64,000 bases of DNA from Shigella phage ESh28. Positions 26,409 to 35,028 of this stretch are shown here, piece by piece. The stretch lies in sequence record ON528738; one strand, 5' to 3'. How positions within the stretch are numbered: the first letter of the stretch is position 1; every line of letters starts with the position of its first letter. The notes below the pieces were generated by a model, which made no database searches, had not been told where the DNA came from, and saw only the letters and a list, made by a program, of their open reading frames with translations. A program made the position numbers and the translations under genes.

Positions 26409-26666
26409 ATGAAAACTTTCAAAGAGTTTGCTACAAAAACTACTATTACTGAATCTTCCCACGGTATGGAAGTAAAGCTTGGAATGGCTTTAGCTGAAGC
26501 TGAGCGTCTTTTCTCTCGTATTAAAGAACTTGCTGCTGCAGTCGATCCTTCGTCTTTTAAAGGAGACCAAACTAAAGTTAAAGCGCTTTTAGCATTATGC
26601 TCCGATGCGGGAGAAATCGCTAAAAATGGTTCTAAGATGAAGAAACGATTAGAAGATTTAAAATAA
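26409..26666 (+). CDS. internal protein with capsid-targeting N-terminus (ipI position)
   Basis: 85 aa; N-terminus MKTFKEFATKTTITE resembles the T4 internal-protein capsid-targeting sequence with an I-x-E prohead-protease site. Confidence 0.6.
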   Translation: MKTFKEFATKTTITESSHGMEVKLGMALAEAERLFSRIKELAAAVDPSSFKGDQTKVKALLALCSDAGEIAKNGSKMKKRLEDLK

Positions 26667-26674
26667 TTTCACAA

Positions 26675-26710
26675 AGTTGTTTACATAGGGTTTTAGTTGT
26701 GATACTATTA
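26675..26710 (+). promoter_or_regulatory. T4 early promoter module (direct repeat of the 26345 module)
   Basis: Same ttcacaaagttgTTTACAta...gtGATACTATtacc core, with a different inverted repeat (ataggg/ccctat). Confidence 0.6.
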
Positions 26711-26736
26711 CCCTATCAACTACTGAGGAGAATAAA

Positions 26737-26922
26737 ATGAAACGTTGTGAATTAATTCGAAATGTTGCTATTGCAATTTCTGCTTCCGCTTTTAGTTTTT
26801 CAATGTTTGTTGGATTTATATGCGGATTATTAACTACAGCAGAAAATGTGTTTTCACTTGTAGTAGCATTTTTAATTGGTTTAATCGCTATTGTTATGGA
26901 TAAAATTTCTAAAGGTGAATAA
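26737..26922 (+). CDS. small hydrophobic membrane protein
   Basis: 61 aa, two predicted hydrophobic helices; strong SD GAGGAG upstream. Confidence 0.6.
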   Translation: MKRCELIRNVAIAISASAFSFSMFVGFICGLLTTAENVFSLVVAFLIGLIAIVMDKISKGE

Positions 26923-27327
26923 ATGAATATTAACGAATATTATGTTTATGCTGGGGATTATGCAAATCCTTCTCATTTTGAAGGTAATTTAATACCTGAT
27001 AGAGTTTTTAATACTCCTTTTGAAGCGTGGAGTTGGGTTGAAAGTAAAAATGGATTTTCTTACCGTTATGTTGAAGTAACTGATTGGAAAGGAACTAAAT
27101 ATCCTAAAGAGCATTATTATATAGACCCATCTAAAGTAAATTTTCTTTTGTTCGCAGGCGATAATTACTATCCTTGCGGTGGATATGATGATTTGATTGC
27201 GTATGCTGAAACAGAAGATGAATTACGCCAAATTATTGAAGACAATAAATCAAAACGATTTGGCGATAGTTTCGACTGGTGGCAAATTGTAAATGCCAAT
27301 ACGCACACTATTGTCGATAAAGGTTAA
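26923..27327 (+). CDS. hypothetical protein
   Basis: 134-aa ORF, start abuts the previous stop; no recognised motif. Confidence 0.6.
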   Translation: MNINEYYVYAGDYANPSHFEGNLIPDRVFNTPFEAWSWVESKNGFSYRYVEVTDWKGTKYPKEHYYIDPSKVNFLLFAGDNYYPCGGYDDLIAYAETEDELRQIIEDNKSKRFGDSFDWWQIVNANTHTIVDKG

Positions 27328-27329
27328 TA

Positions 27330-27620
27330 ATGATTCTTTATGCGAAAGTATCATCTATTGAAAATGGATATAAATATGATCAAGAAGCAGCTAAAGCCTT
27401 GATTGATGATTATGGCATTTTAACATATTTTGAAGTTGAAAAGGTTTACATTGACCGTTCATCTTCTCAAGTTAAATTAGTGAAGGAAGACAGTAAATTT
27501 AATACAGTAAATTTTGATTTCTTTATTGAAACAGAAAAAGGTCCTCTTGAATATGATATTTTCAAGAATCCTTTGGGTCTTGAATGTATTAAATATACTT
27601 ACATTAATGCAGCGTGGTGA
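27330..27620 (+). CDS. hypothetical protein
   Basis: 96-aa ORF packed tightly after the previous gene. Confidence 0.55.
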   Translation: MILYAKVSSIENGYKYDQEAAKALIDDYGILTYFEVEKVYIDRSSSQVKLVKEDSKFNTVNFDFFIETEKGPLEYDIFKNPLGLECIKYTYINAAW

Positions 27621-27622
27621 AA

Positions 27623-28138
27623 ATGAATATTTGTTTAGGTACTACAATTCCGCAGGGCTACGTAATTGATGTCACTACCTGGGAAAATGATGGTGACAAC
27701 TATAAAACCAAAACATTGTTTGGCGTAGAAGAGCATGAAATCTTACAATTTCAGTATCTTTTAAAGAAGTTTAAAAGCAGATATTCTAGTACTAAAATTG
27801 AGCGCTATTGTGGTAATGGTTTGTTCAGCGAGCAATCTCTTTTTATTTATGAATACTTGGTTGAAGGACTGTTCTCAGATCAGCTTTATCCAGAATTCAT
27901 TAAAAAGGTCTTTCGCATAGAAGTTGACCTTGGTAATAAATCTGAAGAAGATGAAGAACGTGTATTTGACTTATTCTTTGTGAATGGTAATAAAGTGCTT
28001 GAAGGACTTATTAATATTTTAGGTAATGCTTCTGAGTATTATGATTATGATTTTTTGCGTGTAGTTGAGAGTGTTAAATACTCTTATATAGAAGAAGAAA
28101 TTGTTTTGCCGACCGTTAAAATGTTTAATTTGCTTTAA
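27623..28138 (+). CDS. hypothetical protein
   Basis: 171 aa from the first ATG (MNICLG...); the ORF-track start is a GTG three codons upstream. Confidence 0.55.
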   Translation: MNICLGTTIPQGYVIDVTTWENDGDNYKTKTLFGVEEHEILQFQYLLKKFKSRYSSTKIERYCGNGLFSEQSLFIYEYLVEGLFSDQLYPEFIKKVFRIEVDLGNKSEEDEERVFDLFFVNGNKVLEGLINILGNASEYYDYDFLRVVESVKYSYIEEEIVLPTVKMFNLL

Positions 28139-28224
28139 GAATTATTTGTTATTATTAACTCATATCGCACTGATTAATACCCTCTATCATCAAGGGTTCT
28201 TGCTTAAGAGCCTTTGTTAATAAT

Positions 28225-33101: not shown

Positions 33102-33538
33102 AAACATTATCAGCTGGTATTATCTTCATGACAGAAGATAAAGATTTATTTATGGGTCGGGTTACTGGTTCTCGTAAGCCTGGAATGATGGCACATCGCT
33201 GGGATATTCCAAAGGGACGTGTAGAAAGTTCTGATTTGAATGCACTGGAAGCTGCAAAAAGAGAATGCTTAGAAGAGACCGGTTTTAGCAATTATAATCC
33301 AGACCTTCTAGAAGACCTAGGTGTATTTAAATATTCTAGTAATAAAGACTTACAGTTATTTTATTATACGATTCCAGTAGAGCATGAGATGTTCAGAAAT
33401 TGCTATTGTGAGTCTTATTTTGAAAATAAAGATGGCGTTATGATTCCAGAGATGGATGCTTTTGCTCTTATTCCTCGTACTCAGTGGCAATATGTGATGG
33501 GTCCTTCACTTTACCGAATAATGAACAACCTCTTTTAA
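33083..33538 (+). CDS. nudE: Nudix hydrolase NudE
   Basis: 151 aa; Nudix box GRVESSDLNALEAAKRECLEETGF; directly upstream of e as in T4 (an alternative start at 33098 has a better SD). Confidence 0.85.
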   Translation: MQEIKMKTLSAGIIFMTEDKDLFMGRVTGSRKPGMMAHRWDIPKGRVESSDLNALEAAKRECLEETGFSNYNPDLLEDLGVFKYSSNKDLQLFYYTIPVEHEMFRNCYCESYFENKDGVMIPEMDAFALIPRTQWQYVMGPSLYRIMNNLF

Positions 33539-33540
33539 TT

Positions 33541-33561
33541 TATAAATACCTTCTATAAATA
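33541..33561 (+). promoter_or_regulatory. two tandem T4-type late promoter motifs upstream of gene e
   Basis: TATAAATA at 33541-33548 and 33554-33561, 14-27 nt upstream of SD AGGAGG and the e ATG. Confidence 0.55.
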
Positions 33562-33574
33562 CTTAGGAGGTATT

Positions 33575-34069
33575 ATGAATATATTTGAAATGTTACGTAT
33601 AGATGAAGGTCTTAGACTTAAAATCTATAAAGATACAGAAGGTTATTACACTATTGGCATTGGTCATTTGCTTACTAAAAGTCCATCACTAAGTGTTGCT
33701 AAATCTGAATTAGATAAAGCTATTGGACGTAATTGCAATGGCATAATTACCAAAGACGAGGCTGAAAAACTCTTTAATCAGGATGTTGATGCTGCTGTTC
33801 GTGGAATTTTGAGAAATGCTAAATTAAAACCAGTTTATGATTCTCTTGATGCTGTTCGCCGCTGTGCATTGATTAACATGGTCTTCCAAATGGGAGAAAC
33901 CGGCGTAGCAGGATTTACTAATTCTTTACGTATGCTTCAACAAAAACGCTGGGATGAAGCAGCAGTTAACTTAGCTAAAAGTAGATGGTATAATCAAACA
34001 CCTAATCGCGCAAAACGAGTCATTGCAACGTTTAGGACTGGCACTTGGGATGCGTATAAAAATCTATAA
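33575..34069 (+). CDS. e: endolysin (T4 lysozyme)
   Basis: 164 aa, [35 protein letters not shown]..., near-identical to T4 lysozyme as remembered. Confidence 0.97.
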
Positions 34070-34106
34070 AGTTGTTTACTTTCTCCTAGAATTGTGATAG
34101 TATATT
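34070..34106 (+). promoter_or_regulatory. T4 early promoter module upstream of denV
   Basis: -35 GTTTAC with a -10-like gtgaTAGTAT about 18 bp downstream. Confidence 0.5.
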
Positions 34107-34128
34107 CACAGTTACTTGGAGGGATAAA

Positions 34129-34545
34129 ATGACTCGTATTAATTTGACTTTAGTATCTGAACTTGCTGATCAACATTTAATCGCAGAATACCGTGAATTG
34201 CCGCGTGTTTTTGGTATAGTTCGTAAACATGTTGCAAATGGTAAGCGGGTTAAAGATTTTAAAATATCTTCCGAGTTTATTTTAGGTTCTGGTCATGTTA
34301 CTTTCTTTTACGATAAGTTAGAATTTTTGCGAAAGCGTCAATCAGACATTATAACGGAATGCTTAAAACGTGGGTTTAGTATAAAAGATACTGAAGTTCC
34401 TGACATCAGCGATATTCCAGTAGAATGGAAAAATGATTATAATCCATGCAAATCAGCTATTAAATTGAGTCAACAACGACTTGATGAAAAAATTTTAATG
34501 AAACCACATTGGTATAAGTATTACGGTAAAAATATTTACATTTAA
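34129..34545 (+). CDS. denV: endonuclease V (pyrimidine-dimer DNA glycosylase)
   Basis: 138 aa, [29 protein letters not shown]..., matches T4 endonuclease V as remembered. Confidence 0.95.
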
Positions 34546-34554
34546 AGGAAACCC

Positions 34555-35028
34555 ATGAAAACATATCAAGAATTTATTACTGAAGCAGCTATTAATTCTC
34601 AAATTATTGCTGAATCTTTTACTGATCTTTTGAAATTTAAAAAAGGTCAAAAAATCACTGCTGTATTGGATGATGGTACAGAAGTTGAGATGGATGTACA
34701 GGGATATAATTATGCAGTAGATGGAAAACTGTATAATAAATCTCATGCTAAATTTGATTCATTTGACGATTTTGTTAATACAGTTGAAGATGAAAAAACT
34801 CGTAGATCCATTGCAACTGGCGACGCTAAGGTTCTTATGGCACACGGTCATGAACGTATCCGCGTCAAACAGAATAAAATGGGCGAAGATAATTTCGCAT
34901 TAGTTGGTTATCAATCTGGTAAACAAACTTATGGCTATCAACGTACTGCTACCATGTATAACAAAAATGGTAAAATTGCCTTTGTAAATAGTAAAGGTTC
35001 TATTCAGTACGTTAAATCGTTCAAATAA
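34555..35028 (+). CDS. internal-protein-like protein with capsid-targeting N-terminus
   Basis: 157 aa; N-terminus MKTYQEFITEAA matches the capsid-targeting consensus; located between denV and the regB-side small genes, not at the T4 ipII/ipIII position. Confidence 0.55.
   Translation: MKTYQEFITEAAINSQIIAESFTDLLKFKKGQKITAVLDDGTEVEMDVQGYNYAVDGKLYNKSHAKFDSFDDFVNTVEDEKTRRSIATGDAKVLMAHGHERIRVKQNKMGEDNFALVGYQSGKQTYGYQRTATMYNKNGKIAFVNSKGSIQYVKSFK

Follow-up and report, generated by a model that had tools for sequence, protein, structure and literature searches.

In bacteriophage T4, each internal protein (Ip or IP) carries a short N-terminal capsid targeting sequence (CTS) that attaches the protein to the scaffolding core. 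The leader is then stripped by the protease gp21, and hundreds of mature, basic copies remain with the DNA and are injected together with it (PMC9026906, PMC3012670). Here we examine a 64,000-nucleotide (nt) stretch of Shigella phage ESh28 (sequence record ON528738; hereafter the window), wherein three open reading frames (ORFs), called ORF1 to ORF3, begin with a leader of this kind. We put at roughly 0.7 the probability that all three encode members of the T4-type internal protein system, in which unrelated bodies each follow a short N-terminal CTS.

Several features of the T4 system are relevant to this comparison. Mutational work has assigned capsid targeting chiefly to CTS residues 4 and 7, and processing to residues 8 and 10, and ten leader residues are enough to package foreign proteins such as green fluorescent protein (PMC9026906). 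The mature proteins Ip1, Ip2, and Ip3 are inhibitors of GmrSD-type type IV restriction enzymes, each acting on a different enzyme without cross-protection; Ip2 inhibits GmrSD-ECOR21 and Ip3 inhibits GmrSD-ECOR17 (PMC12373910). IPIII is required for infection of ECOR17, and it works without its CTS if it is supplied in the host (bioRxiv 10.1101/2022.04.14.488369). Both the occurrence of diverse bodies under a common leader and the anti-restriction role of the injected proteins are already published (PMC3012670, PMC12373910).

The leader shared by three ORFs

An initial annotation of the window had proposed that three dispersed ORFs share the internal protein leader and carry unrelated bodies. 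All three are indeed present on the + strand (Table 1) with the N-termini MKTFKEFATKTTITE/S for ORF1, MKTYAEFLTE/A for ORF2, and MKTYQEFITE/A for ORF3, wherein the slash denotes the predicted cleavage site. When aligned with T4 IPI (MKTFKEFTSTTTPVSTITE/A) and with T4 IPII and IPIII (both MKTYQEFIAE/A), the three products are found to have the leader in common. Past the first 12 to 13 residues, no significant similarity is detected among the three products, which match three different PHROGs, and none has significant similarity to mature IPI, Ip2, or Ip3 beyond the leader.

To count such leaders, the pattern M[KR][TS][YFW].[ED][FYW] was searched in six frames of the entire window. It matches three times, precisely at ORF1, ORF2, and ORF3, whereas the expectation from 200 block shuffles is a mean of 0.045 and a maximum of 1. 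Each match is located at, or no more than three codons from, an upstream in-frame stop, which indicates that all three are true ORF starts. The brevity of the motif is the sole point in favor of a chance resemblance among unrelated small ORFs. This explanation is refuted by the number of matches relative to expectation, by their placement at ORF starts, and by the identity or near-identity of two of the products to named internal proteins, and we assign it a negligible probability.

The predicted leaders comprise residues 1 to 15 of ORF1 (26409–26453), residues 1 to 10 of ORF2 (29490–29519), and residues 1 to 10 of ORF3 (34555–34584), which would leave mature proteins of 70, 177, and 147 amino acids (aa), respectively. 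The aromatic residue at position 4 and the Phe at position 7 that serve as targeting determinants are present in each protein (F4/F7 in ORF1, Y4/F7 in ORF2 and ORF3). Likewise, every leader closes with (L/I)-x-E and then a small residue, the motif for gp21 cleavage (ITE/S, LTE/A, and ITE/A, respectively). Thus, all leader residues named as determinants are found in ORF2 (Y4, F7, L8, E10, A11) and in ORF3 (Y4, F7, I8, E10, A11), and the ORF1 leader (F4, F7, ITE/S) mirrors the longer leader of T4 IPI. The codons used for these residues differ synonymously between the leaders (for example, ACC, ACA, and ACT for Thr3), which suggests that conservation is exerted at the level of the peptide and does not reflect recently copied DNA.

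The predicted mature forms are small and basic, with masses and isoelectric points (pI) of 7.5 kDa and 9.2 for ORF1, 19.6 kDa and 9.5 for ORF2, and 16.5 kDa and 9.1 for ORF3. The corresponding pI values for mature T4 IPI, IPII, and IPIII are 9.0, 9.6, and 9.65. ORF2 and ORF3 share with T4 IPII and IPIII the 10-residue leader architecture, the cleavage motif, and a basic mature form, and mature ORF2 is close in size and charge to mature IPIII (20.4 kDa, pI 9.65). They differ from IPII and IPIII in that their bodies have no significant similarity to the T4 proteins, and ORF2 also resides at a different locus. A BLAST match between ORF2 and IPII (28% identity across 109 aa, with E=0.008 against a very small database) starts at the common leader and was not taken as evidence of body homology.

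Table 1. Positions of the genes and flanking elements discussed in the text (window coordinates unless another record is named).
Feature	Position	Strand	Basis
Upstream border of ip5 cassette: early promoter GTTTACA..GATACTAT plus stem-loop over the -10 region	26321..26389	+	Repeat, promoter pattern
ip5 gene (ORF1), 85 aa	26409..26666	+	RB15 Ip5 identity, phrog_3499, IPI-like leader
Downstream border of ip5 cassette: second promoter/stem-loop copy, driving trna.4-like ORF	26651..26719	+	Repeat
Terminator hairpin closing the tRNA/rnaC-like block; left junction of ORF2 cassette	29372..29395	+	Terminator scan, alignment
AATAAATA, weak candidate late promoter 38 nt 5′ of the ORF2 ATG	29444..29451	+	One mismatch to T4 consensus TATAAATA
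ORF2, 187 aa, phrog_2280, unannotated candidate internal protein	29490..30053	+	Leader rules, leader-keeping homologues
Hairpin plus T-run of the cassette itself; right junction of ORF2 cassette	30058..30084	+	Terminator scan, alignment
ipII-type 5′ leader AAAAATATTTACATTTAAAGGAAAC fused to last denV codons; serves ip4 as recombination joint and ribosome-binding site	34520..34554	+	T4 comparison
ip4 (ipIV) gene (ORF3), 157 aa	34555..35028	+	T2 ipIV identity, phrog_3155, DUF7412
157-aa phrog_2280 paralogue in other phages	Sfk20 (L002) 4482-4955; L001 5438-5911		Leader MKSYAQFLNE/A

The ip5 and ip4 genes and their cassettes

Two of the three ORFs correspond to genes that have been named previously. 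The product of ORF1 is 100% identical to RB15 Ip5 (Z35082.1), and likewise to Ip5 of RB32 and T2-type phages and to the protein called 'ipV' in PST. It matches phrog_3499 'internal head protein' (E=1e-49), and the source names in its cluster include 'Ip5'. The Z35082.1 entry reportedly derives from a study of ip polymorphism by Repoila et al. in 1994. On these identities, ORF1 is Ip5, which has been named and described since 1994. The product of ORF3 is 99.4% identical to the ipIV/Ip4 proteins of T2, RB32, RB18, and PST, and has homologues of approximately 70% identity in Klebsiella phages. It matches phrog_3155 'internal virion protein' (E=3e-101) and the Pfam family DUF7412 (E=3e-95), and source names in its cluster include 'IpIV internal head protein'. 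By the same reasoning, ORF3 is the already named Ip4/IpIV. The initial annotation had allowed that the leader might prove coincidental in proteins of known unrelated function; for ORF1 and ORF3, the database matches are instead to named internal proteins. Relative to Ip5 of RB15, T2, and RB32 and to Ip4 of T2, RB32, and PST, these are the same genes, and the local order alone differs.

The window carries a Tequatrovirus (T4-like) genome on the strand opposite to that of the T4 map. Shigella and Escherichia phages, including Sfk20, sb3, pSs-1, and many others, cover 92 to 97% of it at 94 to 96% identity. Genes are arranged in the order gene 1, 57A, 57B, ip5, ORFs resembling trna.4, trna.3, and trna.2, a 174-aa ORF, ten tRNAs (28225–29055), an rnaD/rnaC-like stretch, ORF2, e.8, e.6 to e.2, nudE, e, denV, ip4, and vs.8. 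This order agrees with the neighbors given in the initial annotation, wherein 57B is 5′ of ORF1, the ten tRNAs are 5′ of ORF2, and denV (34129–34545) is directly 5′ of ORF3. The same annotation had set these three sites against T4, where ipII and ipIII were described as adjacent to each other next to e. The T4 order is indeed denV-ipII-ipIII-e, and the site between the tRNAs and e.8 is additional relative to T4. The proposed contrast does not extend to the other two sites, since the position after 57B is the T4 ipI slot and the position after denV falls within the same e-vs.8 interval that holds T4 ipII and ipIII.

The ip5 gene is bracketed by two 69-nt direct repeats that are 86% identical, each including a promoter and a stem-loop. 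The region upstream of T4 ipI is identical to the first of these elements, and T4 ipI itself also follows 57B, with this promoter/stem-loop in front of it. Ip5 shares with T4 IPI, the inhibitor of GmrSD-CT596, its slot, its upstream element, and an IPI-type leader (MKTFKEF...ITE). Its leader is 15 residues long, compared to 19 for IPI, and its body is unrelated. The repeats bordering ip5 match the PeSL-type cassettes described in the modular shuffling model of T4-type phages (PMC2839356, PMC4122927).

A different type of border is observed for ip4. The denV gene ends in ..GKNIYI here, compared to ..GKAIYA in T4, and its terminal codons have been replaced by a T4 ipII-type 5′ leader. The ip4 gene uses the same 5′ untranslated region (UTR) as T4 ipII. 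In T4, denV is followed by GGGAACAA.CTGGACC, which in the window picks up only after ip4 (35043–35060). As judged from this comparison, the two boundaries are a visible recombination joint that put ip4 3′ of denV. The order of genes between e and vs.8 also varies among phages: e-ipIII-ipII-denV in T4, e-ipIV in T2, e-ipIII-ipIV in PST, e-CTS ORF-denV in PG7, and e-denV-ip4 in the window. On the evidence of these arrangements, this interval is a hypervariable shuffling zone. The slot next to 57B is the other hypervariable ip locus, and T4 has both.

ORF2 and the phrog_2280 family

The only new element among the three is ORF2, whose leader and position make it a candidate internal protein encoded at a third syntenic locus. 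Relative to both T4 and T2, ORF2 is carried on a cassette of approximately 660 bp, whose insertion point coincides with the end of the rnaC-like terminator. When aligned with T4, T2, and Sfk20, the window loses its homology to T4 and T2 just past the hairpin that closes the tRNA/rnaC-like block, and regains it (GGTATCTAGGCC...) directly past the hairpin and T-run of the cassette. Like PeSL cassettes, ip5 is flanked by promoter/stem-loop repeats, whereas ORF2 is bordered by terminator hairpins and ip4 has a common 5′ UTR joint instead. On these borders, the three genes probably move as cassettes via recombination at common flanking signals: ip5 at its promoter/stem-loop repeats, ip4 at the 5′ leader of ipII type, and ORF2 at its terminator hairpins.

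Database names give little indication of a role for ORF2. The protein is encoded in 164 phage records and is called 'hypothetical protein' in 60 of the 60 listed entries. Nearly all source names read in its 151-member cluster, including RB14ORF136 and Shfl2p135, are likewise hypothetical, with the sole exception of one odd 'isopenicillin N synthase-like dioxygenase'. The only PHROG matched by ORF2 is phrog_2280, listed by PHROGs as 'unknown function', and no homology to a named Ip family was found. Literature searches with the locus tags of ORF2 homologues returned nothing. Despite these labels, the leader of ORF2 and the homologues described below suggest that the ORF2 site, between the tRNA/rnaC block and e.8, is a third ip locus that has gone unannotated.

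At the same place, Sfk20, VIPECOOM01, and related phages have a second cassette that encodes a 157-aa member of phrog_2280 with the leader MKSYAQFLNE/A. In Sfk20, an exact match to the late promoter consensus, TATAAATA, is located 40 nt 5′ of the ATG of this gene. The 157-aa paralogue is found in 512 phage records and is 'hypothetical' in all 40 of the entries listed. The window lacks both this paralogue and the phrog_3355 gene adjacent to it.

An exhaustive search recovered one distant homologue of ORF2, P0013, with 31% identity and the leader MITFNEFLNE/S. When used as a tblastn query, P0013 retrieves 350 phage records, among which are ORF2-type records, Karamvirus phages, and an unclassified Klebsiella straboviral phage. 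Homologues in PG7, Pet-CM3-4, and PS49 (the Karamvirus members of phrog_2280) and in HMGUkp2 are located at the same position, flanked by a tRNA block on one side and by the e.8/e.6 genes on the other. Weaker structural matches to the family are present in RB69 and Yersinia phage fHe-Yen9-01. All homologues tested match phrog_2280.

The homologues (P0013, PG7, Pet-CM3-4, PS49, HMGUkp2, and the Sfk20 paralogue) share the leader pattern M-x-x-[YF]-x-x-[FI]-[LI]-x-E-[AS]. In an alignment of eight members whose bodies are only 20 to 30% identical, M1, the aromatic residue at 4, [FI]7, [LI]8, E10, and [AS]11 are kept, and residue 7 is Phe in every homologue but HMGUkp2, which has Ile. These data bear on the possibility that the leader of ORF2 arose incidentally, from cassette recombination or from a favored translation-initiation region, on an ordinary cytoplasmic early or late protein that is not loaded into the head. 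Such an origin would accord with the use of 5′ UTR and leader DNA common to the ip genes as a recombination joint, with the absence at ORF2 of the promoter/stem-loop borders seen at ip5, and with the lack of any database entry that names ORF2 an internal protein. However, residues 4, 8, 10, and 11 retain their residue classes, and residue 7 nearly so, across bodies whose DNA is too diverged for recent exchange, and the conserved positions are those reported to be key for targeting and gp21 cleavage (PMC9026906). Moreover, because ten residues suffice to package foreign proteins, any protein bearing the leader is expected to be packaged. We therefore consider an incidental leader to be very unlikely.

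The favored reading, that ORF2 encodes a packaged internal protein, can be extended to its family. It is possible, at what we judge to be somewhat below even odds, that phrog_2280 represents a family of injected, CTS-tagged proteins at a third ip locus that has so far been overlooked, and that its members would counter a first-response defense other than the tested GmrSD variants. As part of this tentative proposal, the record counts for ORF2, the paralogue, and the distant query (164, 512, and 350) suggest that phrog_2280 may be no less widespread than the named internal proteins. The gain from the present analysis is a candidate annotation for a widespread 'hypothetical' family, and Tevenvirinae probably have three cassette sites for CTS genes, not two.

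Structure prediction for ORF2 reached a predicted local distance difference test (pLDDT) score of 62 from the single sequence and 69 with AlphaFold from an alignment of eight sequences. The model is helical, in that a small N-terminal bundle and a C-terminal helical hairpin are connected by a disordered Pro/Ala/Lys linker. The leader is modeled at low confidence, detached from the helical body and not packed against it. When the model was used for a Foldseek comparison, which covered ORF2 alone, BFVD returned only uncharacterized relatives, and the PDB matches, all with E above 1, were generic coiled coils. Sequence searches of Pfam, NCBIfam, and the PDB with all three proteins (PDB cut-off of 1e-3) gave nothing usable besides DUF7412 for Ip4, and no recognizable enzymatic domain was found in any of the three by domain searches. 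Matches to cytochrome b562 and to a curli synthesis inhibitor were weak, being far below cut-offs or not credible. A match to the PDB chain 7on6_A, 'SAKe6AE' (E=6e-4), was also set aside as not credible, with no matched stretch passing alone.

Natural variation provides one further view of the protein. A clean in-frame deletion has removed the Pro/Ala/Lys-rich linker (residues ~71–94) from the ORF2 copy of Shigella phage CT01 (L007, 2501–2989), which retains both helical domains. This deletion suggests that the linker is dispensable.

Other leader-bearing genes occur near members of this family. In the contig that encodes P0013 (L004, Logan SRR28624380), the next ORF (2092–2526) encodes a 144-aa ART-PolyVal protein (PF18760, phrog_4700) that starts with MITFKQFLNE/S. 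The presence of the same leader variant on an unrelated neighbor fits a modular tag that is shared by adjacent cargo genes. From its domain and leader, this ORF is a candidate packaged ADP-ribosyltransferase that may use an Ip-type tag. It suggests the same logic as T4 Alt, an ADP-ribosyltransferase that is packaged and injected; unlike Alt, the three window proteins have no recognizable enzymatic domain. The N-terminus of Alt is not known to resemble an Ip-type leader. Enterobacter phage PG7 (L012) has leader ORFs on the − strand at 13485–13781, 20959–21612, and 28582–28890. They are at the same three loci as in the window, namely the slot following 57B, the e-denV interval, and the stretch between the tRNA genes and e.8. 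The ORF following 57B is the sole one annotated as an internal head protein, and gp127 (phrog_3966) and gp146 (phrog_2280) are 'hypothetical'.

Packaging, function, and flanking sequences

We infer by analogy that packaging, cleavage, and injection of Ip5, ORF2, and Ip4 follow the T4 route. The CTS would bind each protein to the scaffolding core during prohead assembly, and the prohead protease gp21 would cut after the Glu of (L/I)-x-E, which would free a small basic mature protein. This protein would remain in the head with the DNA and be ejected with it into the next host, where it could act ahead of any phage gene expression. For T4 Ip1, Ip2, and Ip3, the action is stoichiometric inhibition of distinct GmrSD-type enzymes. 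Our guess is that Ip5, ORF2, and Ip4 are directed against type IV restriction or another first-response nuclease defense.

The initial annotation had regarded each of the three as a candidate injected counter-defense effector, and had stated that the injected internal proteins include an anti-restriction factor. The latter point is published for Ip1, as well as for Ip2 and Ip3, versus GmrSD enzymes, and the counter-defense idea is the standing hypothesis of the field and is not new (PMC3012670, PMC12373910). The observation behind that annotation is real and its interpretation essentially right, but it is mostly ordinary, since the T-even internal protein palette has been known since 1994 and was functionally extended between 2022 and 2025.

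Several observations weigh against assigning all three proteins to this system and its anti-restriction role. The genes ip4 to ip10 gave no reproducible inhibition of the tested GmrSD variants (PMC12373910, Supplementary Fig. 9 legend), and T2 is restricted by GmrSD-ECOR17 and GmrSD-ECOR21 (PMC12373910). Because T2 carries both Ip4 and Ip5, an anti-GmrSD role does not simply transfer to these proteins. Literature searches yielded no virion proteomics or processing data for Ip5, Ip4, or ORF2. For ORF2 in particular, the curated RB14 record names its copy only as RB14ORF136, and the model with a pLDDT of 69 has no informative structural neighbor in the PDB or BFVD. Its expression signals are also poor, in that no sigma-70-type promoter is found for it on the + strand, the gene sits behind a terminator, and its only late-promoter-like element is the octamer AATAAATA with one mismatch. 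An exact late promoter is likewise absent upstream of ORF1 and ORF3, but T4 ipI, ipII, and ipIII also have no perfect late box, and thus this absence is uninformative.

Some of these points could be accommodated if the proteins are packaged but chiefly structural, serving as basic DNA- or scaffold-associated head components that aid core assembly or DNA condensation and ejection, and not as agents of counter-defense. The basic character of all mature forms (pI 9.1 to 9.5) is in keeping with such a role, as is the failure of ip4 to ip10 to show reproducible anti-GmrSD activity. In T4, IPIII-minus and triple-IP-minus phages exhibit head-assembly aberrations, and IPs co-purify with gp22 (PMC9026906). 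Furthermore, the ORF2 family is old and keeps its synteny across genera of the Tevenvirinae, a pattern more reminiscent of a housekeeping accessory than of a fast-swapping effector. On the other hand, T4 and T2 make normal heads without an ORF2 gene, T4 lacks Ip4 and Ip5 entirely, and all three T4 internal proteins proved to be specific restriction inhibitors. That the bodies are unrelated in sequence also argues against one common structural role. We therefore regard a chiefly structural function as unlikely, and favor membership in the T4-type system of injected proteins.

Injected proteins of this type act before phage transcription, and so they decide survival against first-line nucleases. 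They are useful for host-range prediction and for the engineering of therapeutic T4-like phages. The advance made here is small, given that the class, the leader, and the anti-restriction logic are established and that two of the genes, ip5 and ip4, are textbook members of it. Nevertheless, ORF2 is a defined and cheap candidate for anti-defense screens, which so far cover only ip1 to ip10. If the assignment is true, the Ip-type leader could be used to mine Straboviridae for further injected effectors, such as the ART-PolyVal ORF of L004 and PG7 gp127.

Two flanking regions of the window differ from T4 in minor ways. The tRNA block has ten genes (Gln, Leu, Gly, Pro, Ser, Thr, Met, Tyr, Asn, and Arg) and no segB homing endonuclease, whereas the T4 block has eight tRNAs plus segB. 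Immediately after ip4, the sequence from 35029 to 35180 has a GC content of 48% (compared to a window mean of 35%) and is kept in more than 1000 T4-like records. A structured RNA was considered for this stretch and rejected, as it matches no Rfam family and instead represents an N-terminal extension of vs.8. The stretch is equivalent to the first 40 codons of the T4 gene, with an in-frame TAG in the window, and the P-loop ORF restarts at 35181.

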